Positions 1,834 through 53,514 of a stretch of DNA of 64,000 nucleotides are shown here, piece after piece; the first letter of the stretch is position 1; each line of letters begins with the position of its first letter. The notes beneath the pieces were generated by a model. It was not told the origin of the DNA. It searched no databases and saw only the letters and a program-made list of their open reading frames with translations. The stretch spans positions 9,605 through 73,604 of IMG/VR virus record IMGVR_UViG_3300045988_166199, one strand, 5' to 3'. This DNA is from a virus. Lineage: Duplodnaviria > Heunggongvirae > Uroviricota > Caudoviricetes. A program made the position numbers and the translations under genes.

Positions 1834-1876
1834 CTAATACTAGAAAACAATTTGTTTAAAAAACAAAGGAAAGCAC

Positions 1877-3217
1877 ATGACCGAACTTTGCCATACAGGA
1901 CGCGGGCTGTCCGAAGAGTTTGATGAAGATTTCCAGAACAGACTGACGGCATATTTTTGTCGTGATCACGAGTTTCTTACTCGTGCGGGAGATCTGGTTG
2001 TGCCTAGCCAATTTGCCAATGCGGCCAATGCCATATTGGTTAATATGGTTTCGGGCTATTACCGTATGTACAAGAGCGCGCCTTCTTCATCTGCGATTCT
2101 GGATATGCTTAAGCGCGCGAAACGCGATAAGACCATCCGTGAGGAACTCTTCCCGGATGTTGTTGCTGCGTTTAAGCGCATCCTTGCAGAAAAATTGTCT
2201 GATACCTCGTACATGGTTGACCAGGTATCCACATTCGCAAAAAGTGTAGCGTTTGATGATGCTCTGATTAAAGCTGCTGAACTGAAAGAGAAGGGCGACT
2301 TTCAGGGGGCGATGGCAATCATGGCCAAGGTTCAGCAGATAGGCTCGAACGAAGCGACCGGAATCTATGACTACTACACCTCCGCAAGTGAGCGATTGAA
2401 AGCGCGTGAATATGAGGCTTCAGAGGAGTATGTGCCAAACAGCATTACAACTGGACTCCCTCTGCTCGATAGGTTGCTGTACCAAAAAGGCTGGGCGAAG
2501 CGTGAAATGGTGCTCTTCATGGGGTTCGCTAAATCCGGCAAATCGACCGCAATGGGTGAGTTTTCCATAAACGCAACGCTTGCTGGCTACAATGTTCTGT
2601 ATCTCTCGCTGGAGGTTCACACCACCATTTTATCCGACCGTTTTGATGCAAGATTGTCGGAGACAGAAATGTCCAAGCTGGTGGAACGGCGCGATGAGGT
2701 TCATCGTAAGTTGGCAGAGTTGGGAGCCACGAAGGGGATTGGTAGTTTGTGGGTGGTTGAGCGTCCGTCAGGAAGTATGTCACCGGCAGATCTGGACCGT
2801 ATGCTTAACAGCATGAAAGCCAACGGCATGGTGCCTGACATGGTTGTTGTCGACTACGCAGATTTGATGCGTGCCAGTTATGACCTTCGTGATGATCGCG
2901 CCAACATTCGTAGTATCTACACCGATTTACGTGCTCTTTATGACAAGCATAACGTTGCTGGTATCACGGCGTCGCAAACAAACCGTGAAGGTGGCGCGTC
3001 AGAAGTTGCCACAATGATGCACGCTGCCGACAACATCGAAAAAGTACGTATTGCTGACCTGGTAATAACGATCAACAAAACCGAAGAAGAAGAAGCGAAA
3101 GGAGAGGCTCGTCTCTACTTTGCTGGTTCGCGTAACCAGCAGGGAGGGATCAGCATTCGCGTTAAACAAAACCTCGAACAAATGCGCTTCATTGAGCGAA
3201 TCTTAGACGTTACCTAA
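1877..3217 (+). CDS. DnaB-like replicative DNA helicase
   Basis: Walker A GFAKSGKST, Walker B-like DMVVVDYADLM, SQTNREG motif typical of DnaB/gp4-family helicases; extended RBS context AAAGGAAAGCACATG; immediately upstream of primase. Confidence 0.75.
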   Translation: MTELCHTGRGLSEEFDEDFQNRLTAYFCRDHEFLTRAGDLVVPSQFANAANAILVNMVSGYYRMYKSAPSSSAILDMLKRAKRDKTIREELFPDVVAAFKRILAEKLSDTSYMVDQVSTFAKSVAFDDALIKAAELKEKGDFQGAMAIMAKVQQIGSNEATGIYDYYTSASERLKAREYEASEEYVPNSITTGLPLLDRLLYQKGWAKREMVLFMGFAKSGKSTAMGEFSINATLAGYNVLYLSLEVHTTILSDRFDARLSETEMSKLVERRDEVHRKLAELGATKGIGSLWVVERPSGSMSPADLDRMLNSMKANGMVPDMVVVDYADLMRASYDLRDDRANIRSIYTDLRALYDKHNVAGITASQTNREGGASEVATMMHAADNIEKVRIADLVITINKTEEEEAKGEARLYFAGSRNQQGGISIRVKQNLEQMRFIERILDVT

Positions 3218-3298
3218 AAAATAAGCGTGGAGAACACCTCCACGCTTGATTCATTGGTGAAACAACTTTTCTTTTGCCAAACCACAAAAGAAAAACAC

Positions 3299-4480
3299 AT
3301 GAGCCTTTATGTTATATCAACATTTAGGTTGGTCACAATATTGCCTGTTAAAAGTGGAATTATCGTGAGCGAGCTGAAAGAGCTAATTACCGAATTAGAT
3401 TTTGAACAATGGTTGGATACTGAAGGTATCGTTTATCGACGTGGAGGCGTGAGTACTCGCGGTCGTGAAGTGAATATCAAGGAGTGTCCGGTATGCGGCA
3501 GCTCCAACTGGAAGGTATATTTCAATCTGACCAGTGGCGTCGGTAAATGCTTCGCTGGTGATCATCCCGAAGAGATTCAGTTCAATAAGCTGGTCTTCCT
3601 CAAGCACTACAGCGGTAAATCACGACGACAGTTCGAGGAATATGTGCAGAACGCTCTTCTTTCCCAGGGGTGGGCACCAAAGAAAGAAGAGATAGTGCTT
3701 GCAAGCACAGTCGAGTTAGAGGGACCAGTTGCACTCCCTCGTCATTACGATCTTCCTATAGATGGCCATCTTCCAGACTATCTGGTTGAACGAAATATAT
3801 CGCCTGAAATGGCAAAGTATTTTGACCTACGATACTGCGTCGAAGGCAAGCACGCTTATGTAGATCCGTATACAGATCAGGTTAAAGGACAGATTTTCGA
3901 TATGCGAATACTGATACCGGTTTACGATCTGGATGGGGTAATGAAGACATTTCAAGGACGAGACATTACCGGTACAGCAGAACGCCGCTACCTCTTTCCT
4001 ATGCAGCTTCCAGCTTCAGGTAAGTTTCTCTACAACGGCCACAATGCAGTCGGCAAACAGACTGTAGTTGTCTGTGAGGGGGCGTTCGATGTTATGGGGG
4101 TCAAACGAGCTATTTTTGACGAAGAAACATTACGCGATTACGTGGAACCAATAGGAACGTTCGGGATGCATCTATCTGGTAACACCACTCAGGATGCAGA
4201 AGATCAGTTGGGCGCGTTCCTGACGCTCAAGGCGCGTGGATTACGTAATGTGATCATGATGTGGGATAGTGAAAAGCAAGCTATACGAAACACTATGGCC
4301 GCAGCCAGGCGACTGACCAGTATCGGTCTTAATGTGAAAATTGCATGTTTGGGCGAGGAAGGACTCGACCCCGGCGATGCGACCCCGGGGCAGATTATCA
4401 AAGCCTACTATTGCGCAAAACCTTACTCACGACAGCTTGAACTTTTAAGCAAGGTAAAAGGCATAGCAGCATTAGTTTGA
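3299..4480 (+). CDS. DnaG-like DNA primase (zinc ribbon + TOPRIM)
   Basis: Zn-ribbon CPVCGSS..GKCF; TOPRIM-like VVCEGAFDVMG; start placed at in-frame ATG 3299 preceded by AAAGAAAAACACATG (ORF track starts at 3227). Confidence 0.75.
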   Translation: MSLYVISTFRLVTILPVKSGIIVSELKELITELDFEQWLDTEGIVYRRGGVSTRGREVNIKECPVCGSSNWKVYFNLTSGVGKCFAGDHPEEIQFNKLVFLKHYSGKSRRQFEEYVQNALLSQGWAPKKEEIVLASTVELEGPVALPRHYDLPIDGHLPDYLVERNISPEMAKYFDLRYCVEGKHAYVDPYTDQVKGQIFDMRILIPVYDLDGVMKTFQGRDITGTAERRYLFPMQLPASGKFLYNGHNAVGKQTVVVCEGAFDVMGVKRAIFDEETLRDYVEPIGTFGMHLSGNTTQDAEDQLGAFLTLKARGLRNVIMMWDSEKQAIRNTMAAARRLTSIGLNVKIACLGEEGLDPGDATPGQIIKAYYCAKPYSRQLELLSKVKGIAALV

Positions 4481-5617
4481 ACCAGTATTAGTCACGTACA
4501 CATTGACCGAAAATGATTTAACTTCTGTGTTGAAGTTGTCAGTCATTACCGCGAGGTAGGCATTCTTGGTATCTCTGAATTGCTTCAGGATGATTTGAAC
4601 GTTGTCGGTGCAAACAAACGAGGTAGCCAGATTGCCTCCTTTCTCTGAAAAATCCTTCAGGAAGGTGCAGTCAACTTTGCCATCATTAGCGGTGAAGGTA
4701 GCATCATCACCCTGCCAGGTAAATGTAGCGTTAACGCCCTTATCAATGGATTTAGCAATAAGTCGCTGGGTGGCGGATTTTGTTTTGGCTTTGGAAGCCG
4801 GCGCTCGATATTTGCCGCTTTCTTTCAGTTCTGCAATGTAATCGCAGCCTCTTTTTTCTCCTTTATCGCAAGCAGTCTGATAAAGGTCGGCTGCTTTTTT
4901 ATAGTCCTTTTTTACACCTTCCCCATTCTCATACATAATGCCAAGATTGGTTATGGCGTCGGCGTTTCCAAGTTCCGCTGCCTTTTTATACCACTTAACT
5001 GCTTCTGCATCATTGCGTTTAACGCCTAACCCATCATCGTATAGTATTCCTAATCCTATCATAGCTTCTGAACTGCCTTGGTCTGCCGCCTTTTTGTAAT
5101 AAGTAAAAGCCTTTTTATAATTCTTTTTAACGCCTTTACCATATTGGTAATACGCCCCAAGAACTGAAGTTGCTTTAACATACCCGGCATCAGAGGCTAG
5201 TTTGAAGTATTTAATGGCGAGTGCATGATCTACTTTACCAAGCATCCCCTTTTGATAAATAGCACCAAGATTGTTGTAGGCTCTACCTTCACGAGCATCC
5301 CCCGCAAGTTTGTAGTACTCAACAGCTTTATTTAGGTCTTTATCTACACCCTCGCCAAATGTGTACATAACTCCAAGTGCATAATATGCTACTTTATCTC
5401 CCTTTTCTGCAGCTAGATCAATCCACTTCTTGGCCTCAACTACATCCTTATCAAAACCATTGACACCATCAAAATAATTTGTACCTAACTCACTTTGTGC
5501 TGCGGTATCCCCTGCGGTAGCGGCTTCTATCAGCGTTTGTTTATTGTCTGCGTTAACGAATCCAGAGTTAAAAAGCAAAGTTAATGCCAGCAACGATGAA
5601 GATTTTATGTATTTCAT
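4472..5617 (-). CDS. secreted Sel1-like repeat (SLR) protein
   Basis: N-terminal signal peptide; about 7 tandem Sel1/TPR-like repeats (A.YYLG.MY..G.GV.KD...A..WY.KAA); opposite strand to flanking replication genes. Confidence 0.75.
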   Translation of the reverse strand: MKYIKSSSLLALTLLFNSGFVNADNKQTLIEAATAGDTAAQSELGTNYFDGVNGFDKDVVEAKKWIDLAAEKGDKVAYYALGVMYTFGEGVDKDLNKAVEYYKLAGDAREGRAYNNLGAIYQKGMLGKVDHALAIKYFKLASDAGYVKATSVLGAYYQYGKGVKKNYKKAFTYYKKAADQGSSEAMIGLGILYDDGLGVKRNDAEAVKWYKKAAELGNADAITNLGIMYENGEGVKKDYKKAADLYQTACDKGEKRGCDYIAELKESGKYRAPASKAKTKSATQRLIAKSIDKGVNATFTWQGDDATFTANDGKVDCTFLKDFSEKGGNLATSFVCTDNVQIILKQFRDTKNAYLAVMTDNFNTEVKSFSVNVYVTNTGSN

Positions 5618-6264: not shown

Positions 6265-6389
6265 AGGTGAATGCTGGGCTGCGGATACGCCCGGCATCTT
6301 AGTATAAAGAACTATTGCACCTAAAATGATAAGTATATACATACTTAAGTTTTTGTAAGAATACTTTCATCCGTTAGCTAGGAGTTGGT

Positions 6390-9677: not shown

Positions 9678-10454
9678 AAATACAATAATAAGTATTTACT
9701 TACCTATCTTTTATGTATAAGATGACTTTGTTTTCGTTGAGACGCGACTGTTTGAACTTAAATACAAGTGCAAACGAAGAAGTCTATCTGGCAGTAGCCT
9801 AATAAGCCAAACACCAGCGAGGTCAGTTTCCAGCCTCGTTACCGAAATGGGACACACTGAGCGAGTGTGATTGCAGAACGCAGGAGGGAACATGAGAGTT
9901 CCCTCCGATGAAGTAACAGAATGGGCGGTCAGTATATTTTCAACTCATATACGACTCCCGGATTCTTAGCCAATGACCGCCCATCCTGTTACGTCATTTT
10001 GTTCAATTATGTCGTTTATACTGGGTTAAAAAGCGGCGACGTAGCCCGGCTGGTATGGTTAGCCAGCACACAACGTTGAGGCCATTACATTTTTATCAAT
10101 TCTAAGGTTCTATTCACAGAGATACCGGCGAGCGTTGATATGTAACATGTTGGGCAAACATTCAATCGGAGTAGTGGCCTCAACGTTGTGAAGACAGGAT
10201 TGTTGTATAGGTTTAACCACTGTTGCCATTAGTGCCTGTTTTCACAACAAATGATTCCATACATCACATTGTATAAATTACAAAGTAGGTGCTGTCCTCA
10301 GAAACATCATCTACTTAAAGATTTTGCCTTCTATTGAGCGAAGTCGAAAACGTCTGGCACTAACGGAAAGTGCCAGTAGCGGTGTGTTTCCTGGCAGAAA
10401 CTAACACCGCCGCGATTGGCACTGTTGAGTAATAAATACTGGCAGTGCTGAATT

Positions 10455-10529
10455 GATGGTGTAGCTCAGCGGTAGAGCAGTTGGCTGTTAACCAACTGGT
10501 CGGTGGTTCGAATCCACCCACCATCGCCA
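10455..10529 (+). tRNA. tRNA-Asn (anticodon GTT)
   Basis: Cloverleaf: acceptor gatggtg/caccatc, anticodon loop ctGTTaa, T-loop ggttcgaatcc, 3' CCA; sequence differs from host asn tRNAs. Confidence 0.8.
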
Positions 10530-10534
10530 ATTTA

Positions 10535-10621
10535 GGGGAGTTAGTCCGTAGAGGTAGCGGGACAGACTGTAAATCTACTGTCATTGCGACTCGGGTGGTT
10601 CGACTCCATCACTCCCCACCA
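10535..10621 (+). tRNA. tRNA-Tyr (anticodon GTA)
   Basis: Acceptor ggggagt/actcccc, anticodon loop ctGTAaa, long variable arm, ggttcgactcc T-loop, CCA. Confidence 0.8.
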
Positions 10622-10625
10622 AATT

Positions 10626-10701
10626 GCCGGTTTAGCTCAGTTGGTAGAGCGCCTGCCTTGTAAGCAGGATGTCAGCGGTTCGAGTCCGTTAACCGGCACC
10701 A
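10626..10701 (+). tRNA. tRNA-Thr (anticodon TGT)
   Basis: Acceptor gccggtt/aaccggc, D-arm tagctcagttggtagagc, anticodon loop ctTGTaa, T-loop ggttcgagtcc, CCA. Confidence 0.75.
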
Positions 10702-10925
10702 ATACAACGATAAGATCATTACGGTTAATCGTCGTTCATGTGCACAATGACTGGTCGAAAGGTAGTGATCTTACCGTTGTGGTGGATTCGCAGACTGATG
10801 CGATAGCTTTCTTGGATGTTAGGGAAATGCGGCCGCAAATCTTCCCTTTCGCGAGCGGTGATCGTCCGTAGTCCTAATTGGCTGCACCGTATGCCGGAGA
10901 TTCAGTACCGGCCACCACAACGGCC

Positions 10926-11012
10926 GGAGAGTAGGGAGCATGGTGCTCAAGCGGTCTTGAAAATCGTCCCATTGTGCAAACGATGATGGTTCGATTCCAT
11001 TACTCTCCGCCA
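10926..11012 (+). tRNA. tRNA-like gene with long variable arm (possibly tRNA-Ser, anticodon TGA; atypical D-arm)
   Basis: Acceptor ggagagt/actctcc, T-loop ggttcgattcc, CCA end; anticodon stem weak and D-loop short, so isotype uncertain. Confidence 0.5.
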
Positions 11013-11190: not shown

Positions 11191-12402
11191 TCAAAAAAGT
11201 TTTATAAATTCATAATTCTGGTCAATTAAGGATTCAATACACACCATGCAAAAATCTACATCGTTAAAATCAGGTGTGTAATATTCATCCTCATAACATT
11301 CATTTAGACCTTCAATCAATTTTTCTTTAAAAACTCCCCACGTTTCAATATGAACCATTTCCATATAAGGCGCATGTGTATGTACTTGCAATACATCCCA
11401 GGTGTCTATAACCTCGATCCGCGGCTTGCAATTAATTTTTTCTAAATATGCCCTCCCAGAATTGTAAATTTTCGACATTGATGCCCCAAAACCTGATGGT
11501 TGGTAATGAGTGTAAATGTCATAAATTTTTTGTCCTATTCTAGGGAGTTGAGAAGCATTGGATATTTGTGGCGAATGAAAGTATCGCTCTATGGAAGAAA
11601 ACGCAGAAACATTAACTAGAGTAATCGTATATGGTGCTAAAGTTCTCTCGTTCAAATTTCTACATAAAATAGCAAACCCATGGCTATTAGTCTTTTCACC
11701 GTCTGAGGACATTTTTGCCATGCTGGCTTTAATAACATTCAATTTCGAATGTAAACGAGAAGTGGAAGTCGGTTGATTATACATTTCATCATCATACAAA
11801 CATATATGAAACCCGCCAAGATGACGAAATGAGAACTTGAGTGCTTCTTCCGCAATAACTAATTTATTAATATCTAAAGGAGTAAGTGATACGTTACCTT
11901 GTAAATCATAGCAAGGTTCTAAACATAGAAAGTTTTTCTTCTGCCACACGATCATATTAAAAATAAAGTGTCTAACCAAAGGTGGCCAGTCAGGTGATAT
12001 AAGTACATTGGTAATATCTCCATCAGACAAGTATGACAAGTAACTTTTTAGTTCCGCAGCATATGCCACTAGCTCAGTTCCAGCTTCCCTTGTTGGTGTT
12101 GAAAAATTTTTTAACTCAATAAGAACTAAGGATTCATTCTCTGTTGAATAAGCAACGACATCAGGTCTTAATATCTCAGATTTTGTTGCTGAGATATTCT
12201 CATCATCTGTCATTAAATGTAACAATGTTATGTTCTTTAAACAAAACTGATAACTCTCCTTAATTTTTTTCTCTTCGGGTCTTTTCGGATTAAATTCATT
12301 TAATTTATCAATATTGATGATTGAATTATATAATCCATCTTGATCAGATAATTTGTCAATTATCCAATTTTGCATTTCCTTTTCGCTTAAAAATATTGAC
12401 AC
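11191..12402 (-). CDS. hypothetical protein, downstream partner of Abi-like gene (403 aa; AbiGii-like size; possible PD..(D/E)xK-like motif)
   Basis: Co-directional, 26-bp spacing from upstream gene; AT-rich codon usage; segment ILRPDVVAYS...LVLIELK compatible with a nuclease-type D...ExK motif (inference only). Confidence 0.55.
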   Translation of the reverse strand: MSIFLSEKEMQNWIIDKLSDQDGLYNSIINIDKLNEFNPKRPEEKKIKESYQFCLKNITLLHLMTDDENISATKSEILRPDVVAYSTENESLVLIELKNFSTPTREAGTELVAYAAELKSYLSYLSDGDITNVLISPDWPPLVRHFIFNMIVWQKKNFLCLEPCYDLQGNVSLTPLDINKLVIAEEALKFSFRHLGGFHICLYDDEMYNQPTSTSRLHSKLNVIKASMAKMSSDGEKTNSHGFAILCRNLNERTLAPYTITLVNVSAFSSIERYFHSPQISNASQLPRIGQKIYDIYTHYQPSGFGASMSKIYNSGRAYLEKINCKPRIEVIDTWDVLQVHTHAPYMEMVHIETWGVFKEKLIEGLNECYEDEYYTPDFNDVDFCMVCIESLIDQNYEFIKLF

Positions 12403-12428
12403 TAATTAGGCTCCCGTTAAACCAAAAA

Positions 12429-13295
12429 TTAAAAATCTTGCTTTACTTTATCCATGGTCAGAATTTTGCTAATAATTGAAGATTCAAATCCATCTAAACC
12501 TGAGAGAAAGTTAATTAGCTTTTGGATATGTTGTTCTTTAGGTATAAGTATATATTTTATATCATTGAACTCAAAATCAATGCCAAACTTTGAAAATTTT
12601 GAGCTAATTTTTGCTTTGTCATCAGAAGTGATAACACGCTCCAAACTCAGACTAGGCCATAAATCACCAATAAAAGGAGCTGGCACATAACGCCACTCTT
12701 TCTCGTCTGCATATATATAATTCTCTATTGTTTTATTATCTTTTCGCTCTAGCTTGCCTCTGTAATTTTTCATATAACGCAGTAAATTATATAGATCAGA
12801 ATATTCTGCTTTCAATTTCTCAAACTCTATTCTGTTTTTGGTATCTAAATTTCCTCTAGCCTTCCAAAGCGGCACCAACTTATTTTTAATAAGTCGAATT
12901 CTGGCATTGTATTTAGAAAATATTTCACTACTCTTATTCATATATAGAACTGGGTGTAGACCTTTCTTTTCCGCCCAAGACTTAGTTAGCCCAAGACCGA
13001 ATTCTCCATATTTTCCGCTATGATCTCTGATTTGTGATAGTTTTATGTCACAAAACGATACCATTGGTACTGCAAACCTCCTGCGTCCCCCGACTCCTCT
13101 TATTTCCTCGCGAGCAAGAAATGGTTTAAAATATTTCTCAGCCAATATGCTATAGAAAGCATCTTCGTTTTTTGTAAAATGAAACAACGTGGTTGGATGA
13201 AGACTATAAACAGATTCAACATTCGCATCAGGATTTTCAAGGATAGTCATTTTACACCTTGTGGAAAGCCAGTTTAGTTCTGTAAATAGTATCAC
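12429..13295 (-). CDS. abortive-infection-like protein (AbiGi-like, 288 aa)
   Basis: Motifs LFHFT, VPMVSFCDIKLSQ, YGEFGLGL.K.WAEKKGL.PVLY resemble AbiGi-type proteins as recalled from memory; AT-rich; first gene of a two-gene operon. Confidence 0.55.
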   Translation of the reverse strand: MILFTELNWLSTRCKMTILENPDANVESVYSLHPTTLFHFTKNEDAFYSILAEKYFKPFLAREEIRGVGGRRRFAVPMVSFCDIKLSQIRDHSGKYGEFGLGLTKSWAEKKGLHPVLYMNKSSEIFSKYNARIRLIKNKLVPLWKARGNLDTKNRIEFEKLKAEYSDLYNLLRYMKNYRGKLERKDNKTIENYIYADEKEWRYVPAPFIGDLWPSLSLERVITSDDKAKISSKFSKFGIDFEFNDIKYILIPKEQHIQKLINFLSGLDGFESSIISKILTMDKVKQDF

Positions 13296-15077: not shown

Positions 15078-15175
15078 ACTGAAAATGAGTTACTTTTACT
15101 CTTGATCCTATAAGAATCTATGCCTAATATACTGTTTACTTATACAGTGCATCGGCGTAACTCGGTGATTGTCAT

Positions 15176-16279
15176 ATGAAAAATAGCTTTGACAGAGCAC
15201 GCGCTGCGGAGAACACCTCAAAAGAGGCGATTGAGTATCTCGAAAGAGCATCTCAAATGCAGGCCGTTATGATCTCCCAGGTCAGCAATGACATGAGATT
15301 CTCGGACGCATTCATGTTATTCACTCGCTTATCTCTGCTGATAACAAGACGTCGGCCAGAGATCGCTGTTCATTGTATTTTGATACATGTTTTGCCGCAC
15401 ATTGCCGATGTAAAAGTAAGTGATATTAATAGGTTCATGGTGAACCAACTGGTCAACCCACTAATACTGGATGGCAAAATTGTTATGGGTCGCCGCGTTT
15501 TCTCTCTGATGAAGCAGTTCCTCAGCTGGTGCGCCTTCCAGGGGATGATCGACGTGTCACCGTTAAACGATATGTCACTTAACAAAGTTGCCGGTGGCGC
15601 AAAGCCCACACCTCGCGAGCGGAAGCTGACCGACGCAGAGGTATGGGTGTTCTGGAATATATGGGACTACTTCAATGTGTGTGCTGGTACAAAATGGGCG
15701 GCCAGGCTATGTCTTGTATCCGCAAGACGACCTGACGAAGTACTGCGGGCTAAAAAAAGTGAGTTCAATCTTAAGCGTGGGGTTTGGAATCAAGGCAAGA
15801 GGAACAAATCTGCCCGTGAGCATTCTCTGCCTTTAAGCTCATTAATGCGCACATGTATTGAAGAGTTGTTCGAATATGGTAAAGACAGCCAGTGGCTCGT
15901 GCCTTCGAATAAAAAAATCGGGAAAGACCTTCCTATGTCTAAAGTGGCAATAGCCCAGGCATTACGTCGTATTCTGGAACGACCAGAACTGATGGAGCTT
16001 GAGCCATTTACACCCCGAGATTTGCGCCGTACTGCGCGTAGTTACTTCCCAGCATTAGGCATAAGCCAGGAGGTATCACGTAAAATCATGAACCACAGTC
16101 TTGAGGGGATAGATCGGGTCTACGACCGGCACGATTATATGGACGAGATGCGAGACGCCTTAGAAAGTTTCTCGACGTACATCGCATCAATCGTAGAGCA
16201 ACCGGATTTAGACGAAATTGACCACAAATTTAAGGGAGATCGTCTATCAACAGAGCTTATTCGTGTAAATTTTTCATAG
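15176..16279 (+). CDS. tyrosine-type site-specific integrase
   Basis: C-terminal catalytic motifs: R in LVSARRPDE, RDLRRTARS box II, NHS...RVYDRHDY with tyrosine nucleophile; lacks a recognisable P4-type N-terminal arm-binding domain. Confidence 0.8.
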   Translation: MKNSFDRARAAENTSKEAIEYLERASQMQAVMISQVSNDMRFSDAFMLFTRLSLLITRRRPEIAVHCILIHVLPHIADVKVSDINRFMVNQLVNPLILDGKIVMGRRVFSLMKQFLSWCAFQGMIDVSPLNDMSLNKVAGGAKPTPRERKLTDAEVWVFWNIWDYFNVCAGTKWAARLCLVSARRPDEVLRAKKSEFNLKRGVWNQGKRNKSAREHSLPLSSLMRTCIEELFEYGKDSQWLVPSNKKIGKDLPMSKVAIAQALRRILERPELMELEPFTPRDLRRTARSYFPALGISQEVSRKIMNHSLEGIDRVYDRHDYMDEMRDALESFSTYIASIVEQPDLDEIDHKFKGDRLSTELIRVNFS

Positions 16280-16666
16280 AGACTTTATGGCCTCAACAAC
16301 CTTTTGTGATGCGCCTTTCTCTTTACCGAATCGCTCGTTATATGCAGCAAGAACCTGTTTTTCGTCCTCGTTAAGAGGAGCAGTGCCTTCTTTGTATAAA
16401 AATGCTGCGAGTTCGGGTTGGCGTTCTTCCAGCACCATCATCATAAGACGACTTGGCTCAATACCCAGTGCCAGCGCCAGCGGACGAACCTTATCGATAG
16501 GCAAAGGAATTTTGCCGCTTTTAATTAAAGAAAGGTTGTTGGCGTTTTTATACCCAATTGTTTTGGCTATCTGGGCCTGGCTCATAGGTGAGGATTCAAT
16601 CAACCCTGCGATAAAAGCAGCGTAGCGACTTTCTATAAATTCAATCTTGTTATCAGACATGGTCAC
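16274..16666 (-). CDS. XRE-family helix-turn-helix transcriptional regulator
   Basis: HTH motif SQAQIAKTIGYKNANNLSLIKSGK; convergent with and overlapping integrase 3' end. Confidence 0.7.
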   Translation of the reverse strand: MTMSDNKIEFIESRYAAFIAGLIESSPMSQAQIAKTIGYKNANNLSLIKSGKIPLPIDKVRPLALALGIEPSRLMMMVLEERQPELAAFLYKEGTAPLNEDEKQVLAAYNERFGKEKGASQKVVEAIKSL

Positions 16667-16911
16667 AACCTTTGCGCGTTCAATTCTCTCTGGTAAGTGC
16701 TTACCGATATTACATCAAAGGTTAGGGTTGTAAAGCTATTATCATTTTTTTCGATAGGCACTTAAAAGACCGGTTAAAGGCCATTGCACGGAGAAAAATT
16801 AGCCCAAAATAGGTAAGAAAAGTAACTTGCATATGATATGAATGTATTCAGTATTGATACAAATTTTAGTAGTATTCCTTACCATAGTATAAGTTAGAAT
16901 GGATTGATTGA

Positions 16912-17124: not shown

Positions 17125-17222
17125 CCCCTCTTCTCCCTGCGCGAATGGCTTAGTTCCCTGTTCGCGCAGTGCTACATTAAACACACTAGTAAATAATTTG
17201 TTTTCATAACAAAGGATTAGCC

Positions 17223-19331: not shown

Positions 19332-19426
19332 TTAGAATAGCCTTAATGATAAGTAATCACTTACGATATTTGATGGTATATTTATATAAGAAGTTGAAAG
19401 CTCATTAGAAAACAAAGGAAAAACGC

Positions 19427-29632: not shown

Positions 29633-29635
29633 GTA

Positions 29636-33984: not shown

Positions 33985-34071
33985 TGTGAATAATTAAAAC
34001 AGGCATTTACTACCTTCGGCGCACCTGGTGGGTTATCGTTGCCTCGGCTAACAATCACAGAAAAATGACAT

Positions 34072-34716: not shown

Positions 34717-34970
34717 CCCTCCAGATCGTATATTGGCGTAGATAGAATCTACGCCCCCTCAAAATAGCTCTCATAGCGTTCTACAGTGATCCTGTCTTAT
34801 TTTTAGTCATACAGACAAGCAAAGTTGCGCCACGATAAATAGGTATATACTTACTTATAAATTTTGTATATTAAGGCGCTCGTTTCATTCCTAACATACC
34901 GTTATGCATAGTTGTTTACCTCCTCATTGCTCTTAGAATTTGTATCAAAATAACCACAAAGGAAAAACAC

Positions 34971-36056
34971 ATGACTTTGCCATACGGCGTCATTTCTGAC
35001 TGCCACTACCACAAATGGGATGCGTTCTCCACGACGAACGCTGAGGGGCTTAACTCCAGACTTGAAATACAGTTGGAAGCAACGAAAGAAGCAGCCATCG
35101 CCATGAAGAAGGCCGGTTGTAAGTACATGTTGGTTGCCGGTGATACATTTCACGTCCGAGGAACTGTGTCCCCTTCTGTTTTGCATTACGTAACTGAAAC
35201 GTACAAGTGGATTATCAACGAGCTTGATCTGACAGTAGTAATGCTGGCCGGTAATCACGATCTTGAAACCAACGATTCAGTATATAGCGCCAACGCAGCA
35301 GCATCGCTGAGTTCTATCGGCGTGGTAATCGTATGTGGCAAGCGCCCACACTCAATAAAAATTGGTGATGTGACTGTCCACCTGATTAGCTGGCGTAACA
35401 ATCATGCGGAGCTTATCAGCGATCTGAAAGCATTACGTAAGAGCGTAGAAGGTGATAATCATGACGTTGTTATCCATACATCCATTAACAAAGCCATTCC
35501 AACAATGCCTGACGTCGGTATCGATGCGCAGGAGTTAAAGGATATCGGCTTTCGTCTCGTGCTTAGTGGGCATTACCACAACCACAAAGAGGTCATTCCT
35601 GGAGTTATCAGTGTCGGTGCACTGACTCATCAAAATTGGGGAGATGTTGGATCTCTGGCTGGCTACATGATCGTAAACCCGGACGGCAGTTTCAGTCACT
35701 ACGAAACCAGTGCGCCTAAATTCATTAACCTGGAAGATGATGTTGCTGATGACCAAATTCGCGGCAACTACGTGCGTTTCCGCGCCGTAATTGAGAACGA
35801 TGAAGAAGGCATTAAGTACCAGAACATCCTCAAAACAATCGGTGCAAAAGGTGTCGTGTGCAACTTCATCCGTAAGTCATCAATGATGGAAGGTACAGCC
35901 AGCACAACTGAAACCAGCAAAATCGATAGCCTGGGAGAGTCGGTATCTGCTTATTGCAAGATTGTCCACGATACTGACGGCGGATTTGATCTGAGCAAAT
36001 TGGATATTTTGTGTCAGGAAATCCTCACCGAAGCGGAGAGTTCGGAGGCTGTGTGA
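34971..36056 (+). CDS. SbcD/Mre11-like nuclease (T4 gp47-like, calcineurin-type phosphoesterase)
   Basis: Phosphoesterase motifs DCHYH, VAGDTFH, LAGNHD. Confidence 0.8.
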   Translation: MTLPYGVISDCHYHKWDAFSTTNAEGLNSRLEIQLEATKEAAIAMKKAGCKYMLVAGDTFHVRGTVSPSVLHYVTETYKWIINELDLTVVMLAGNHDLETNDSVYSANAAASLSSIGVVIVCGKRPHSIKIGDVTVHLISWRNNHAELISDLKALRKSVEGDNHDVVIHTSINKAIPTMPDVGIDAQELKDIGFRLVLSGHYHNHKEVIPGVISVGALTHQNWGDVGSLAGYMIVNPDGSFSHYETSAPKFINLEDDVADDQIRGNYVRFRAVIENDEEGIKYQNILKTIGAKGVVCNFIRKSSMMEGTASTTETSKIDSLGESVSAYCKIVHDTDGGFDLSKLDILCQEILTEAESSEAV

Positions 36057-36285: not shown

Positions 36286-38202
36286 ATGAAGTTTTTAAAG
36301 CTCCAGGTTGAGAATTTTATGGCTATCGCCAGCGCGGAGGTCGAGTTAGATCAGCGTGGTTTAGTGCTTATTCAGGGTGTTAATAGTGATGATAGTTCCG
36401 CATCAAGTAATGGCTCTGGAAAGTCAACTCTAATGAATAGCCTGATGTGGTGTCTTTATGGCGAAACAGCTCATGGTGTGAAGGGTGACGATGTGTTGTC
36501 TACCGACCATGAAAAGAACTGTCGTGTTGCAGTAACCATCGAGGATGAAGGCAAGAGATACGCAATCATTCGTCACCGTAAACACAAAGAGTTCAAAAAT
36601 CGTCTTATCGTTCGTGGTGAAGATGGCGATATGACGAAAGGCAAAGATGCGCTGACGCAGGAGTTCGTCGAGCGTCTGATCGGTGCATCTAAAGAGGTTT
36701 TCATGGCTTCCATCTATGCGAGCCAAGAAGCTATGCCAGATTTACCTGGAATGTCCGACAAAAACCTCAAAACCATCGTAGAAGAAGCCGCTGGCGTTGA
36801 CAGACTGACACGCGCCTACGCTATTGCTCGTGAGCGAGCTAATGCAGCTGCCGCACGTATGGATGTGGTTAAAACCAAATTGGAGTCGACAATCTCGACC
36901 ATTGAGGCAACACAGTCAGAAATTGAGTCAGCGAAAGCCTCCTCTGAATCATGGGAGCAAGAGCGTTCTAAACGTTATGACGATGCCCTGGCTGGGCTGG
37001 CCAGTGCCGAAGTTGAGTTAACGGAAGTTGAACTTGAGATCCGCACTCTTCCCGAACAGATACGTGATACCGAGAAGGCAATCGAAAGTGAGCGCAAAAA
37101 GTTAGCCTCAAAAGAAGAACATGACGCCAAGTTGCTCAAAGTTCGTGGTGCGATAACTGATATTCGGGCAAGCATCAAAGCTACAGAAAATAGTCAGGCT
37201 GATGCAATGAACCGCGCGCGTAATTTTAAGACCAAAGCAGAAGAGGTTGGTACTAAAGTGGGATCACCATGCCCTACTTGTGGCAAAGCCTACTGCGAAG
37301 AAGATCTATCAACGGTGAAGGAGAATTTCATTGAACAAGCACGTCAGGAAATTGGTCAGGCAAAGACACTTGCAGAGGCAATGGCTAAACACAAAACGAA
37401 TCTTGAGAAAGCGTTAAGCATTGAGTCTGCCCTTGTTAAAACGACACCTGATGTAACGGCTATCATTGCCCGGATTGAAGAGCTTACGAAACAACTCTCA
37501 TCTTTGCGTCATCGTGAGAAGGAGGTTGTTGCTATTGAGTCTCTTGTGACTCGTGCTCGTACTGAGGTCGATCGTATATCAAAAGAGATTAATCCGTTTA
37601 TTGCTCTTATCGCCAGACACGAAGATAACTTGGTATCCAGTAAGTCTACCTTCAAGTCCTTAAAAGATGAGTTGAAGGCTATTCAGGAACAAACGTTGCT
37701 ATTGGAAAAAGCTCGTCAGGTCTACTCTCCTGCCGGGGTGCGTTCTCATATTTTGACGTCTGTTACGCCTTTCCTGAATACACGCACTGCCGAGTATCTC
37801 AATACGTTGTCTGACGGGAATATTACTGCTGAGTGGTCGACGATGGATGTCACTAAAAAAGGTGAGTATCGCGACAAATTCAACATTAGTGTGCAGAAGA
37901 AAGGTTCAAGTAAGTCGTTCCAGACCCTCTCTGGTGGTGAGAAGCGGAAGGTTCGCATTGCGTGTTCTTTGGCATTGCAGGATCTGGTTAGTAACCGGGC
38001 GAGTAAAAACATCGATTTGTTTATCGGCGACGAAATTGACGATGCACTCGATACAGCCGGTCTTGAACGCCTCATGGGTATTCTGGAGTCCAAAGCTCGC
38101 GAGCGAGGTACTGTGCTGATTATCTCCCATAAAGAGATGAAGTCATGGTTCCGGGAAACTATTACGCTGGAAGTTAAAGAGGGGCGCAGCTATGTCGTTT
38201 AA
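36286..38202 (+). CDS. SbcC/Rad50-like ATPase (T4 gp46-like)
   Basis: Walker A GSGKST, central coiled coil with CPTCGK zinc hook, signature LSGGEKRKV, Walker B LFIGDEIDDALD. Confidence 0.85.
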   Translation: MKFLKLQVENFMAIASAEVELDQRGLVLIQGVNSDDSSASSNGSGKSTLMNSLMWCLYGETAHGVKGDDVLSTDHEKNCRVAVTIEDEGKRYAIIRHRKHKEFKNRLIVRGEDGDMTKGKDALTQEFVERLIGASKEVFMASIYASQEAMPDLPGMSDKNLKTIVEEAAGVDRLTRAYAIARERANAAAARMDVVKTKLESTISTIEATQSEIESAKASSESWEQERSKRYDDALAGLASAEVELTEVELEIRTLPEQIRDTEKAIESERKKLASKEEHDAKLLKVRGAITDIRASIKATENSQADAMNRARNFKTKAEEVGTKVGSPCPTCGKAYCEEDLSTVKENFIEQARQEIGQAKTLAEAMAKHKTNLEKALSIESALVKTTPDVTAIIARIEELTKQLSSLRHREKEVVAIESLVTRARTEVDRISKEINPFIALIARHEDNLVSSKSTFKSLKDELKAIQEQTLLLEKARQVYSPAGVRSHILTSVTPFLNTRTAEYLNTLSDGNITAEWSTMDVTKKGEYRDKFNISVQKKGSSKSFQTLSGGEKRKVRIACSLALQDLVSNRASKNIDLFIGDEIDDALDTAGLERLMGILESKARERGTVLIISHKEMKSWFRETITLEVKEGRSYVV

Positions 38203-39514: not shown

Positions 39515-39548
39515 TTTCATTGATAGGTAAGTGCTTATCTATTAACAT

Positions 39549-41903: not shown

Positions 41904-42008
41904 CATATGGTGGGGTATATCCCCACCTTCTCTTTGATTTGTAAGCCTTGTTTAAACAAATAAGATAACAACTTGTTTAAACATATCAAAAAGCAAAAGG
42001 AAAAACAC

Positions 42009-43151
42009 ATGTCATATTCAACGTTCCGTTTGGGTGCTAATGATGCAACCAAAGAGCCTATGTTCCTCGGACAATCTGTCAACGTGGCACGTTACGATCA
42101 GCAAAAATACCGTGATTTTGAAAAGTTGATTGAACGTCAATTGTCTTTCTTCTGGCGGCCGGAAGAAGTTGATATTTCGAGCGATCGTATCGACTTCAAC
42201 ACGAAGCTGCGGGACCACGAACGTCACATTTTTCTGAGCAATCTCCGTTATCAAACGTTACTCGATTCAGTTCAGGGACGTAGCCCAAATGCAACGTTGC
42301 TGCCGCTTATCTCTATTCCTGAACTGGAAACGTGGGTTGAAACATGGTCTTTCTCTGAGACTATCCATAGCCGCAGCTACACCCACATTATTCGTGGCAT
42401 GGTGGACGATCCGAGCATTGTTTTTGACGGTATTGTTACGGATGAAGAAATCATCAACCGAGCGATCAGTATCTCTGCTGAATATGACAGGCTTTATGGG
42501 ATGACCTGCGAGCGCCAGTCGTTAGGTGAGAAAGAGTTTGAACGTCTGTACGTAAATGAATATGGCTGGGAGCCATACCCTTTGCACCGTCAGCTTTTCC
42601 GCACGTTGGTGTCCATTAATGCGCTTGAGGCGATCCGTTTCTATGTAAGTTTTGCATGTACGTTTGCCTTTGGCGAACGGAAGTTGCTTGAGGGTAACAC
42701 CAAAATTATGCGCTTTATTGCCCGTGATGAAGCTCTGCATTGCGAAGGAACTGAACGCATGATCCGCTTCATGCGTACCGGTCGCGAAGGTTTATTGTGG
42801 AAAGAGATTGCTGCTGATGAAGAAAACGTCATTTACGACACCATGAAATCAGTCGCCGAACAAGAAATGAACTGGGCAGACTATCTCTTCAAAGACGGTT
42901 CGATGATTGGTTTAAACGCGGATATTCTGAAGACCTATGTAAAATACCGAACCAATCTGGCTATGAATCGTCTTGGCCTGAAGGCTTTATTTCCAGAAGT
43001 TACCACTGATCCGCTGGTCTGGATGAACAAGTGGTTGTTAACCGACACACTGCAAATTGCACCACAAGAGGCAGAGCAAAGCACATATCTGGTAGGTCAG
43101 ATCGATTCTACCGTGGATAAGGCTTCTCTAAGCCAGTTTGCAGACCTGTAA
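42009..43151 (+). CDS. nrdB: ribonucleoside-diphosphate reductase beta subunit
   Basis: Diiron/tyrosyl-radical motifs (e.g. [18 protein letters not shown]); start at ATG 42009 after AAAGGAAAAACACATG. Confidence 0.9.
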
Positions 43152-44193: not shown

Positions 44194-44270
44194 ATCTATC
44201 TGGCCTTGTTTCCTCAATAAATGTAAACTCACTTAATGAATAAGTGATTACTTATCTTTGTGAGGTTTTT

Positions 44271-45375: not shown

Positions 45376-45789
45376 ATGGCAAGAGGTATGTATGTCTTAT
45401 GCGAAATTGAAGGTGTGCTGGCAAATGCCAGCCATCGTAAATCAGTATCTGACGCGGATGCAGGCCAGCTCATTGCCGGTGATGAACTCATTTTCCCCAC
45501 CAGCCGTATGTTGCGTGGTTTTGCTCGCTCAGGGGCTGAAGTGGTGCTTATCAGTAGCCGCTCTGAAACTCTTGAAGCGCCAACTAAACGATGGCTGAAA
45601 GATTTTGGCGTTGATTATGACTGGCTTCATCTCGTACCAAATGGCACCAGTTATGAGAAGCATATTAAGCGCACATTAGCGGAGCATAAAGGCGATCTGC
45701 TTATCGCTGCGCTGGTGCACGATCCTCGACTCCGTGCCGCTTTAGCCGACTCTCACCATCGACCGGTCATCTATGAGGTGAGCAAATGA
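45376..45789 (+). CDS. hypothetical protein (137 aa), translationally coupled to thyA and DHFR genes
   Basis: ATG 2 bp after thyA stop; stop overlaps DHFR start. Confidence 0.45.
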   Translation: MARGMYVLCEIEGVLANASHRKSVSDADAGQLIAGDELIFPTSRMLRGFARSGAEVVLISSRSETLEAPTKRWLKDFGVDYDWLHLVPNGTSYEKHIKRTLAEHKGDLLIAALVHDPRLRAALADSHHRPVIYEVSK

Positions 45790-48922: not shown

Positions 48923-49105
48923 CGTTCCCCTACTGAAAATAAAGCCCATAGAGAGCTTTATAGTGCTGGGTAAGCCAATCACATACCCAGCACCACAAAA
49001 ACGCGCCAGAGAGCTTCTCGTTTGCATTTCTGGCGCGTTTTATTTGATTGCCAGACATAAAATCAAATGCAAAAATAGGTATTTACTTACCTATCGAGAA
49101 AGAAG

Positions 49106-49720: not shown

Positions 49721-49785
49721 AGCCTGCTTCTGTATATATAAATAACTACATATTAATTATTATTATACGGAAGCAGGCTGTTTTG
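49721..49785 (+). terminator. long-stem hairpin plus T-run (copy 2 of repeated ~60-bp palindromic element)
   Basis: agcctgcttctgtatatataaata ... tattatacggaagcaggct gtttt; near-identical to 919-980. Confidence 0.6.
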
Positions 49786-50115: not shown

Positions 50116-50699
50116 TAGATAAGTACAAACTATTCATAAGATGAATTGTAAGTGCTAAGATCTGATAGTTTCCAGTCGTAGACTGGAGACTCGACCTGAT
50201 GGGTGGAGGTAAGCGTCACTGGCGTCAGGTTTAAAAAAGCTCACTACCAGCGTAGAACCGGTGCCGTTTAGGTGTCGGGGAAGGGGGAACCAAAGTGAGC
50301 GGAGACAAGGGTCACTTTATGATTGTCGAGTCTGGGGTGTTTCGAGAGGTTGAATCCAGTACTCCCCTTCATAAAGTGTGGGAAGATCTCGGTTCTGGGG
50401 TGCTGTCATCCATAACTTCCCAAGTCTAAGCTGGCAGTAGACTTAGACCATAACTTTTCAGGTTATGAAAGGACCAGGTTGGTGAGGGATTTTTATACTC
50501 ACCTCCCTGGGAGAGTATTACCTGAAAAGACAACCTCTCACTTCGTTCGAGGTGAACTTCACTCACTTCGTTCGTTCAGTTCAGGTTTATAAAAACCTGT
50601 TCTGGGAAGTAATTTGTTTATTTTAATAATTATTAACACGCACGCGTGTGCGCACGCGCGAGGAAAAAAATCGGCGCGGCGCTTGATTCAGGAGTTTAT

Positions 50700-51293
50700 A
50701 TGACGACGAAGACACCATCCCGATCGCAAGCAAAAACTCGCAAAAAAGCCAAAAACAAAAATTCTCCCCGCACCAATCCCACAACGCCTGTCGTAGAGTT
50801 CAATCCCCAGCTTAAAACCGTAAAAATCTACAGTGATGGCTCTTGCCTTAAAAATCCGGGTGGCCCGGGCGGTTACGGTATAGTTCTCCAGTATCGTGGT
50901 GAGGAACGCGAGTTCTCAGATGGTTTTCATAGCACCACCAATAACCGCATGGAGATGATGGGGGCACTTATCGGGCTGGAGCGTTTGAAATATCCATGCA
51001 ACGTTATTTTGCACTCTGATAGCCAGTATCTGAAAAACGGCATGACACAGTGGATGAAATGGTGGAAACGTAATGGATGGATGACTTCTGATAAAAAACC
51101 GGTAAAGAATGTTGATCTGTGGAAACGTCTGGATGAGGACGCAAGTCGACATAATGTTCGCTGGAAGTGGGTTAAAGGTCACGCCGGGCATCGTGAAAAT
51201 GAAATATGTGATCGACTCGCGAAGATCGCAGCTTTTTCCGCAGCCGATACGCCTCACAAGAAAGACATTGGTTTTATTTACAACAAGTGGTAA
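50700..51293 (+). CDS. ribonuclease H (RnhA-like) with basic N-terminal extension
   Basis: [17 protein letters not shown], ...[33 protein letters not shown] match the RNase HI fold; start at ATG 50700 after RBS caggag. Confidence 0.85.
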
Positions 51294-51694
51294 GTAAGTG
51301 TTTACCTATCATATTAAATCATGTATCTTATCAGCGTCAGGATGACAATGTGTCGGTAAGACACAGTTCCAGGATGGAACGAGAAAGGCGGCTGGCGATC
51401 GCCAGCCGCAACTCTTTCTGACACTGGATGGAGTCCACATGGCACGTCAAACCTATTTCACTTCTGCAACTAAACGTCCTCGTTCACTACGTCAAATTTT
51501 GGCCGAATTATTTAGCGGTCGTGTTCTGTCACGTCTTGATGAACTGGAGACTACCGTTCGGTTGCTGAATGAACGTTTAGATAAGCAAGCGTCAGTTGTT
51601 GCGAACGTGGGGGCGATTGTTACCTCTGGTTCTTCACACCAAGCGAAAAATGCACGGCCTTTAGTGAAGGAGAAAAACAACAAGGACAGTTCGA

Positions 51695-52131: not shown

Positions 52132-52224
52132 CGGCTGTTAGTGCATATGCATTGACCATCTTTGCGTAAGCAATTTATGAAACTAAAAAACAACTTGTTT
52201 TGACAAATAACAAAAGGAAAACAC

Positions 52225-52650: not shown

Positions 52651-52810
52651 TGCTTGAGAGATTCCGGCTTGTGATCGTCATTGCTCTTCTGGTGATGGCG
52701 GTGTTGGTGGATTTTACGGGAAAGATGATGTCTGTCATTTCTGATGGCGTCCTCATTGGTTTGGCGATCTACTTCGCTTATCCGTTAGTTCGTAAAGCAA
52801 AGTGTTAATG

Positions 52811-52840
52811 ACAAGGGCCATTTGGCCCTTGTGTTTCGTT
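52811..52840 (+). terminator. rho-independent terminator
   Basis: acaagggcc attt ggcccttgt gtttcgtt. Confidence 0.65.
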
Positions 52841-52947
52841 GACCGAAATAGAGAGTTTGCACCTTTACGTTTAGCTTGCTCCCCTTATATGCCACATCAC
52901 AATAAAGCCAATAAGAAAACAACTTGTTTAAGCATTAAGGAAAACAC

Positions 52948-53514
52948 ATGTGCGAGAAATGCAAAGCAATAGCTGATGAACAAAACGCCCTATTCGAAGA
53001 AATGGATGCTAATGAACTTGTCAAAATGTTAGCCATTCTTCGAGGAATAGAAGACGTTTCCATATTTGAGAGACTGTTTACAATACTTAATTTTAATTCC
53101 ACCTTTGAAGAGCCAACTCAGATTGTAGCTTTGGCACACCATTTCGGTGTTCATTACCTTGCTGAAAAAGAGAGAGCTGATAAGTTGCAAGCGACTTTGG
53201 ATATGGTGAGCGAGACTCAAGGAACTGATGACGGCAACAAAAGTGAGACGATTATTGCCAGCAAAGATCGTGAAATTGCCGGGCTTAAATCCTCTCTAAC
53301 GATGTTGATGTCTGCAATCAACCTTATGTCTTCTAAAGCAGGTTATAAAATGCCATCACTAAACAGCGACGATCCGATGGCCGTTCGCCAGCTTTTAGGT
53401 GCAATGGCCGACCAGCTCGACGACACAAAGAGTCGCCTTGAAGACATGATGCGGGAGCTCACGCATCGCCATGACTTGAATAAGCAGCCGCACAAAACGC
53501 AATACGCACTCTAA
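52948..53514 (+). CDS. hypothetical protein (188 aa)
   Basis: ORF with AAGGAAAACACATG start context. Confidence 0.5.
   Translation: MCEKCKAIADEQNALFEEMDANELVKMLAILRGIEDVSIFERLFTILNFNSTFEEPTQIVALAHHFGVHYLAEKERADKLQATLDMVSETQGTDDGNKSETIIASKDREIAGLKSSLTMLMSAINLMSSKAGYKMPSLNSDDPMAVRQLLGAMADQLDDTKSRLEDMMRELTHRHDLNKQPHKTQYAL

Follow-up and report, generated by a model that had tools for sequence, protein, structure and literature searches.

What is the purpose of the short palindromes that stand in front of several genes of a phage-plasmid? The question is raised by a stretch of 64,000 nucleotides (in the following: the window) from the Caudoviricetes record IMGVR_UViG_3300045988_166199 of IMG/VR, positions 9,605 to 73,604. 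A first-pass annotation of this DNA had described an AACAA(T/C)TTGTT palindrome upstream of at least five genes and an extended start context common to many more, and had ascribed both to a common regulator of a subset of genes. Judged by the best megablast matches of positions 28000-36000 (Escherichia phage PhiR41_1 98%, phage Cyrano 97%, Salmonella phage SSU5 78%), the window belongs to an E. coli phage-plasmid of the SSU5-like kind. Whole-locus alignments show that it is collinear with the SSU5-type phage-plasmids PhiR41_1, Cyrano and SSU5, and it extends from just after parA across replication, recombination and nucleotide-metabolism genes. We consider it rather probable that a repressor of the phage-plasmid, acting as a dimer or a dimer of dimers, recognises a putative operator of 16-19 bp, AGAAAACAAnTTGTTTaa, which has the palindrome as its core. 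What is observed is that the sites are enriched, confined to intergenic DNA, oriented, of fixed geometry and conserved across lineages, and that downstream RNA is low in a Cyrano lysogen; from these observations we infer the transcription start, the repression itself and the identity of the protein.

The palindrome is strongly over-represented. There are five exact matches to AACAAYTTGTT in the window (1846, 30530, 41967, 52189 and 52918) as compared to 0.24 expected from dinucleotide shuffles, and they precede the starts at 1877, 30558, 42009, 52225 and 52948, just as the first-pass annotation had it. If one mismatch to AAACAANTTGTTT is allowed, the number of sites rises to seven (0.29 in shuffles, maximum 2), the additional two being at 17191 before cobT and at 53631 before the open reading frame (ORF) 53656. 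All seven are intergenic even though only 17.6% of the window is non-coding; a similar frequency inside coding regions, which would have spoken against a regulatory role, is thus not what we see. Of the five matches with two mismatches, the three that are in coding sequence are noise-like. The distance between palindrome centre and ATG is 19-37 nt in the window. An unbiased enumeration of every 5+5 palindrome with gaps of 0-6 nt gave a consistent picture: AACAA-N1-TTGTT is the top-ranked palindrome of the whole PhiR41_1 genome (12 vs 0.17 expected), and in whole SSU5 (13 vs 0.08 expected) it is tied for the first place with its own sub-form AAACA-N3-TGTTT (14). In PhiR41_1 19 of the 20 sites with at most one mismatch are intergenic, and 21 sites were counted in CP027615, a divergent plasmid of K. 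pneumoniae. There are about 20 copies per genome. We call those copies proximal that have a Shine-Dalgarno (SD) sequence and a start codon directly 3' of them. The sites of the window are as follows.

1845 to 1857, + strand: proximal (type A) palindrome AAACAATTTGTTT before the DnaB-like helicase gene (ATG 1877), left flank TAGA, -10-like TAATTA at 1827-1832; footprint kept in SSU5 and CP027615.
17191 to 17203, + strand: proximal palindrome with one mismatch, AAATAATTTGTTT, before cobT (ATG 17223), extended -10-like TGCTACATT at 17170-17178; an exact copy precedes SSU5 cobT.
30529 to 30541, + strand: proximal palindrome AAACAATTTGTTT before ORF 30558-30983 (function not assigned), after a terminator-like hairpin and T-tract at about 30484-30507.
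41948 to 41959, no strand: everted half-site pair TTGTTTAAACAA, 19 bp 5' of the nrdB palindrome, in the spacer of a possible TTGTAA-N16-TAAGAT promoter; kept in SSU5.
41966 to 41978, + strand: palindrome TAACAACTTGTTT before nrdB (ATG 42009), 3' of a terminator-like hairpin at 41909-41927.
52188 to 52200, + strand: proximal palindrome AAACAACTTGTTT before the P1 TciA-like gene (tciA, ATG 52225).
52917 to 52929, + strand: proximal palindrome AAACAACTTGTTT before ORF 52948-53514, -10-like CACAAT at 52898-52903, terminator-like hairpin upstream at 52811-52832.
53631 to 53643, + strand: proximal palindrome with one mismatch, AAACAAATTATTT, before ORF 53656-54132, a canonical cassette with extended -10 TGCGATAAT at 53609-53617 and a terminator-like hairpin at 53532-53547; the SSU5 orthologue of this ORF has an exact copy.
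3260 to 3272, + strand: degenerate copy with two mismatches, AAACAACTTTTCT, before the primase gene; tentative.
50607 to 50619, + strand: degenerate copy with two mismatches, AAGTAATTTGTTT, 87 nt before the RNase H gene; tentative.

The palindrome had also been said to be duplicated before nrdB, which proved to be incorrect, as the second element consists of the same half-sites in everted order (TTGTTTAAACAA) and is not another copy of the palindrome. The extent of the motif had to be revised as well. When the sites of the window, of three complete relatives and of 119 IMG/VR loci found by the pattern AAGAAAACAANTTGTTT were pooled, the consensus over 229 unique sites was aAGAAAACAA.TTGTTTaag. 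The palindromic core is real, and the true motif is longer and asymmetric (AGAAAACAAnTTGTTTaa; AGAAAACAAGTTGTTTAA as duplex operator), pointing toward the downstream gene in the genomes examined. All IMG/VR loci with several copies are SSU5-like; loci unrelated to SSU5 have two matches at most, mostly one, and are of low G+C, as chance predicts.

The position of the motif with respect to promoter-like sequences appears to be constrained as well. A -10-like hexamer (at least four of six matches to TATAAT) starts exactly 25-26 nt 5' of the palindrome centre in 55 of the 130 unique proximal sites, and 34 of these 55 have the TG of an extended -10 (TGnGATAAT). The distance from the centre to the ATG has peaks at 19-20 and 26 nt. 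The clearest cases in the window are the sites at 53631 and 17191, those at 52917 (CACAAT) and 1845 (TAATTA) being poorer fits. The start is predicted to lie in a conserved CCAA, which would place the palindrome centre near +13. Terminator-like hairpins are found just 5' of the nrdB, 52948, 53656 and 30558 sites, therefore a new promoter is needed in these short gaps. In the relatives there is a second, inverted copy after the terminator and 5' of the -10, divergent from the first and exactly 51 bp away from it, centre to centre (23 unique cases); no other spacing between neighbouring site pairs occurs more than three times, and the 51 bp are constant while the sequence between the paired operators varies. 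The centre of this distal copy would lie near -38 relative to the predicted start. The window itself contains proximal copies only, plus the special arrangement with everted half-sites at nrdB. In front of terS there are two direct copies, 25 bp apart, with a terminator-like hairpin after them. Late promoters of the P1 type consist of a -10 and an inverted repeat about 22 bp 5' of the start, in place of a -35. Here the predicted centres are at about +13 and -38, i.e. the repeat is not where such a promoter needs it.

Comparison of related genomes shows what has been kept. Upstream of the helicase gene the window, SSU5 and CP027615 have two conserved blocks in common, AGAAAACAAnTTnTTTAA and AAGGAAAGCACATG, which are the operator and the ribosome-binding site, while the rest has diverged. 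The upstream region of nrdB follows the same pattern, its site being kept while the flanks diverge. Since the palindrome and its exact spacing persist while the cassette around them diverges, selection appears to act on the site and on its position relative to the promoter. In a syntenic 108-kb Moellerella element no palindrome was found, only degenerate relics such as ATAAGAAAACAATATATTT before parA.

Based on these features we propose that the repressor would bind the operator as double-stranded DNA. The complete cassette would consist, in this order, of a terminator, an optional inverted operator near -38, an extended -10 (TGnGATAAT) without a -35, a start at CCAA, the operator near +13, and the SD with the ATG. 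Occupation of the proximal site would block open-complex formation or promoter escape, and where a distal copy is present 51 bp away, the two bound units could cooperate across the promoter. The genes behind the cassette include parA, the DnaB-like helicase gene, cobT, nrdB, terS and many small accessory genes, so one protein could keep a dispersed regulon low in the plasmid state. An NrdR box, an idea that came from the supposed duplication at nrdB, was rejected because the same palindrome precedes parA, the helicase gene, cobT, terS and many unrelated genes.

Published RNA-seq data allow a first look at these genes in a lysogen. According to the per-gene values for a Cyrano lysogen grown overnight in LB (S1 Table of PMC9928086), in which the background median is 9.8, several genes behind the palindrome are near background: terS 7.1, cobT 7.8, CYRAN_58 5.7, tciA 7.0, CYRAN_87 7.1 and CYRAN_101, which has a dual operator, 7.5. 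The value of nrdB is 12.9 and that of the helicase gene 21, the gene upstream of the latter having 6.2; the exception is the parA operon with 50, 89 and 55 (PMC9928086). The low levels fit repression of otherwise competent promoters.

Which protein could be the repressor? Our leading candidate, a contested one that we put forward tentatively, is CYRAN_29, the 119-aa partner of ParA, which is annotated as RelE/ParE and whose level in the lysogen is 89 (PMC9928086). Its gene is located behind an operator-bearing promoter, with one copy 42 nt before the ATG of parA in PhiR41_1 and copies before parA in SSU5 and Klebsiella as well. A putative beta-strand of the protein, IKSRTMS(L/I)EDE, is invariant in all motif-bearing lineages at an overall identity of 48%. 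The 222-aa ParA encoded next to it matches MipZ, AAA_31 and CbiA. Upstream of parA there is a single palindrome and no repeat array, unlike in a type Ib centromere. In hhalign comparisons of the partner with ParG, omega and CopG the probabilities did not exceed 1%, and the registers fit strand-helix-helix. The partner gene alone has matches in 797 plasmid records, and no SSU5-like phage that is devoid of it was found. An independent parA/partner locus outside SSU5-like elements was sought as well and given up: the Klebsiella IncF copy is cut by IS5, and Photorhabdus pPAU1 is a deleted SSU5-like element.

One may go further and speculate, although we find this doubtful, that the protein after parA is a global regulator like KorB or omega. 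The operators would then have been spread by a mobile promoter cassette to about 20 promoters, the partition module would directly curb the replication of the phage, nucleotide metabolism and the late operon as well as accessory 'moron' genes, the sites would perhaps double as a dispersed centromere, and the start context GGAAAACAC would be a second reading of the operator code.

Other phage proteins were examined as regulators and set aside. CYRAN_117, a 92-aa protein encoded after uvsW, has a level of 114 in the lysogen (PMC9928086) and its family is present in all lineages. However, its N-terminal strand varies among the motif-bearing lineages (TYCQVAL, IHCQVQL and VSCHLKL), and the promoter of its operon has the palindrome of the second class described below. 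The CI-like helix-turn-helix (HTH) protein (16274-16660; CYRAN_45, with a level of 96 in PMC9928086) carries GGTAAGCACTTACC in its own promoter and fits that second class better. The winged HTH protein CYRAN_123, both ParB-like proteins, CYRAN_37 and CYRAN_113 are expressed at background level, which argues against them as lysogenic repressors (PMC9928086). Altogether, no phage protein was found that co-varies cleanly with the palindrome.

Several observations weigh against the repressor-operator reading or against its details. Firstly, a standard scan for the -35/-10 consensus found no promoter at the palindrome sites, so an ordinary sigma-70 promoter of this kind was rejected; the result agrees with promoters that depend on an extended -10. 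Secondly, the predicted +13 position rests on -10-like matches in 55 of the 130 sites. Thirdly, the nrdB and terS sites are arranged differently from the others, and a simple symmetric dimer would leave the asymmetric AGA flank without an explanation. As regards the candidate protein, searches of the 119-aa ParA partner against Pfam, PHROGs, PDB and by hhalign gave no support for a ribbon-helix-helix fold. Moreover, Moellerella pW18-2-b and Photorhabdus pPAU1 keep the strand (IKSRTVSMEDEY) without having the palindrome; upstream of parA, ATAAGAAA(A) is all that is shared, so a co-variation of site and protein is not seen. Finally, low RNA in a lysogen is equally expected of promoters that need an activator.

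As the proximal site is predicted to be part of the transcript, it may be asked whether it acts in the messenger RNA (mRNA), i.e. as an element of the 5' untranslated region (5'UTR) next to the SD that is bound by a translational repressor, the natural candidate being the FljA-family protein CYRAN_114/SSU5_121. The gene is outside the window, and CYRAN_114, a PhiR41_1/Cyrano protein, matches PF03614 with an E value of 1.3e-68. FljA is known to prevent translation of fliC mRNA by acting on the fliC 5'UTR (PMC2652032). The motif has the same orientation as the gene and directly adjoins the SD, and a FljA-like gene is present in the motif-bearing lineages and not in the motif-less Moellerella. 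The fliC 5'UTR of Salmonella and Citrobacter has a gapped resemblance to the cassette (CCAATAA..CAAGTTGT..TAAGGA). Even so, we regard this explanation as unlikely. A position weight matrix (PWM) of the 130 proximal sites gave best scores of at most 3.1 at nine fliC loci as opposed to at least 16.3 for true sites, and the link to FljA via fliC was dropped on this ground. A DNA operator is favoured because the inverted repeat with its 7-bp half-site period suits a symmetric DNA-binding dimer and not a binder of single-stranded RNA. One-mismatch variants break the symmetry on one arm and are not compensated on the other, the five window 5'UTRs fold no better than shuffles (z -0.86 to +0.82), and an Rfam scan of the window found only tRNAs at gathering score; for these reasons an RNA hairpin or riboswitch-like element was discarded too. 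In addition, the distal copies lie 5' of the promoter, the identity between the E. coli and the Klebsiella FljA-like protein is as low as 36% while the motif is identical, and CYRAN_114 is barely expressed in the LB lysogen (18 vs the background of 9.8; PMC9928086).

Two side observations concern the same family. The fliC 5'UTRs at four Salmonella/Citrobacter loci (L140, L144, L137 and L145) read CCCAATAACATCAAGTTGTAATTGATAAGGAAAAGATC-ATG and can be set beside the cassette CCAATAAGAAAACAAGTTGTTTAAGGAG; this likeness is gapped and post hoc and may be due to chance. The FljA-family gene of PhiR41_1 ('repressor of phase-1 flagellin', 37192-37710, - strand) might silence the flagellin of the host.

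The missing co-variation with a phage protein could also mean that the site is the operator of a host transcription factor that is conserved in Enterobacteriaceae and ties the phage-plasmid genes to host physiology. The motif is identical in Escherichia, Salmonella and Klebsiella elements, and the syntenic element from Moellerella, which belongs to the Morganellaceae, does not have it. On the other hand, a top-ranked palindrome present in about 20 copies on a 108-kb element is typical of global regulators encoded by the element itself, and all multi-copy IMG/VR loci are SSU5-like. To our knowledge there is no E. coli regulator with this consensus. We therefore see little probability in a host factor.

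Positive control is the next possibility: the site could be bound by an activator, serve as a loading site for a Q-like antiterminator, or be part of a promoter that is read by a phage-specific factor in lytic growth. The downstream genes are silent in lysogens, the promoters are without a -35 element, and the terS copies precede a terminator-like hairpin that must be read through, all of which would agree with this idea. But only 19-26 nt, which include the SD, separate the proximal copy from the ATG, and this is not an activator position such as -41 or -61 for an SD-containing transcript; as the SD is within a few bases of the proximal copy, a classical activator site is excluded for such a transcript. 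Furthermore, the annotations of these genomes list neither an RNA polymerase nor a sigma gene, and most copies have no terminator between site and gene, so we consider positive control very unlikely. Finally, the copies could mainly be centromere-like sites for partition that are dispersed over the element, or else passengers of a promoter cassette that was duplicated and acts as a linker in recombination; either way they would have no regulatory role of their own. One copy is indeed in the parA promoter, N15 has four separate centromere sites, IR1-4 (PMC7205306), and cassette-rich loci carry unrelated cargo (e.g. L026 with 10 sites in 11.4 kb and 34% similarity to SSU5/PhiR41_1). We nevertheless hold this reading to be highly improbable, since both the palindrome and the precise distances persist where other parts of the cassette have diverged.

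The second element of the original proposal, the extended start context, needs to be discussed separately. It is real: AAAGGAAAAACACATG has eight matches in the window with up to two mismatches, as compared to 0.10 expected, and AACACATG occurs 10 times on the + strand, nine of them at start codons, and not once on the - strand. CACATG ends 13 of the 65 starts. The copies are located as follows.

41996 to 42011, + strand: translation initiation region AAAGGAAAAACACATG of nrdB, as an example.
Other copies end at the start codons 1877, 3299, 19427, 20843, 25964, 29432, 31039, 34971, 52225 and 52948.

The context, written as AAGGAAAACACATG or AAGGAAA(A/G)CACATG, is found on genes that follow a non-coding gap, and it does not respect the boundaries of a regulon: it occurs together with the palindrome (helicase, nrdB, tciA, ORF 52948), together with another operator class described below (gp32, sbcD, cobS, 29432, 31039) and with neither (primase, dnaE). 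The common regulator is thus upheld as the best reading for the palindrome, which is intergenic, oriented, of fixed geometry, kept as a footprint and present in about 20 copies per genome, and it is not upheld for the start context. The context does co-occur with the palindrome phylogenetically, the counts of AACACATG on the + and - strands being 11/0 in PhiR41_1, 11/0 in SSU5, 15/0 in CP027615 and 1/0 in Moellerella, and its core, GGAAAACAC, resembles the left arm of the operator, AGAAAACAA. Most simply, it is a lineage-specific strong, A-rich and unstructured translation initiation region that is inherited with the 5'UTR cassettes, and none of the findings calls for a regulator of it. A RegA-like translational repressor of the start context was also looked for and abandoned, as ten unannotated window proteins have no Pfam match.

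Many of the other intergenic gaps of the window contain a second operator-like palindrome, approximately ATAGGTAAGTnnTTACCTAT (TAAGT-N4-ACTTA), at these positions.

1062-1085, 6330-6347, 9689-9702, 16694-16707, 19350-19363, 25861-25878, 29385-29398 and 31007-31020: second-class sites.
31334-31351, 34840-34857, 39524-39541, 44241-44254, 49076-49089, 50120-50133 and 51291-51308: second-class sites, continued.

This palindrome often overlaps a -35/-10-like promoter, shares no gap with the AACAA palindrome and is over-represented in SSU5, too. One copy, GGTAAGCACTTACC, is in the promoter of the CI-like HTH gene (16274-16660, - strand). The second class is probably the putative operator of the prophage repressor.

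A few further features of the element were noted in passing. The window has cargo that is missing from Cyrano and PhiR41_1, at 54191-60121, 11191-13295 and 4472-5617, all on the - strand: a complete type I restriction-modification (R-M) system (hsdR, hsdS, hsdM), an AbiGi-like abortive-infection gene with a 403-aa partner, and a Sel1-repeat protein. The R-M island apparently cut down a DUF4942 methylase homologue to ORF 53656-54132. The RecA/UvsX-like gene at 28266-29339 has 1074 nt in the window and 2340 nt in Cyrano and PhiR41_1; according to the alignment these relatives have a clean insertion of about 1.26 kb, possibly an intein. The tRNA cluster at 10455-11012 comprises Asn-GTT, Tyr-GTA, Thr-TGT and Ser-TGA, and the Cyrano annotation lists Asn, Thr and Ser at the same place. 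The segment 31865-32077, homologous to a P1 cra-like gene of Cyrano/PhiR41_1, has stops in every frame translated and may be a frameshifted pseudogene or reflect a coordinate offset. At least 14 iterons (CCGCTGACAGCATA) are found at 32125-32655 and 33772-33871, on either side of repA (32656-33750, - strand); together with a cluster of GGATCT repeats at about 33930-33990 they are probably the plasmid origin. LexA-box-like sequences (CTGT-N8-ACAG) lie at 15132-15147, just 5' of the integrase gene (15176), and at 61574-61589, just 5' of the umuD/LexA-like S24 peptidase gene (61610); ciprofloxacin is reported to induce Cyrano (PMC9928086). A long hairpin with an AT-rich loop (CCTGCTTCTGTATATAAATA...TATACGGAAGCAGG) is repeated in at least three places, 921-975 and 49724-49780 in the window and 45580-45640 in PhiR41_1, one PhiR41_1 copy being directly 5' of the terS palindromes.

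Phage-plasmids of the SSU5/pHCM2 type are common in Escherichia, Salmonella, Klebsiella and Enterobacter and have cargo genes for resistance and defence. In the literature covered, neither keywords nor sequence strings led to a description of the motif, and no account of gene control in these elements was found there. The palindrome offers a testable map of one regulon with about 20 promoters, and the predicted promoter/operator cassette would account for newly acquired accessory genes coming under common control. Taken together, the AACAA palindrome and the second operator class suggest a two-repressor layout of the plasmid state. The short sequences described here can be used for promoter annotation in hundreds of related plasmids.

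It is useful to compare the predicted regulon to known systems. Functionally, the KorA/KorB- and omega-type plasmid regulons and the C1 repressor system of P1 appear to be closest. KorA and KorB of RK2/IncP and omega of pSM19035 govern global plasmid regulons through dispersed palindromic operators. As in those systems, a short palindrome is found here at many promoters of a large low-copy replicon, partition, replication and accessory genes are covered, and there is an operator at the promoter of the partition operon, whose small second gene encodes a candidate DNA-binding protein. The differences are that the site sequence is unrelated, that the site is mainly just 3' of the predicted start and may be joined by an inverted copy 51 bp 5' of it, and that the element is a phage-plasmid whose regulon includes the late (terS) operon; here the system is known from its sites and the regulator is putative. 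FljA and fliC share with our case a family member encoded by the elements and a site that is predicted in the 5'UTR next to the SD, but the PWM test on fliC loci failed, and the palindromic symmetry and the copies 5' of promoters do not suit an RNA operator. N15 has four dispersed centromere sites, IR1-4, bound by SopB (PMC7205306), and is similar in that palindromic sites for a partition protein are scattered over a phage-plasmid genome. It differs in having four sites and a ParB-type protein, whereas here about 20 sites stand at fixed promoter positions and a small ParA is accompanied by an uncharacterised 119-aa partner. A structural likeness exists with the PeSL promoter/stem-loop cassettes of T4-type phages, which Arbiol et al. 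reportedly described in 2010: in both cases a repeated module of terminator and promoter flanks small variable ORFs in a plastic region, but the cassettes studied here contain a palindromic operator, whose position is strict, and a promoter of the extended -10 type. The C1 repressor of P1 has many operators that are dispersed over the plasmid-prophage genome. Here, too, operators are scattered over such a genome, each at an individual promoter; however, it is the second class, ATAGGTAAGTnnTTACCTAT, present in the promoter of the CI-like gene, that fits the role of C1 better, and the AACAA palindrome looks like a second, parallel regulon.

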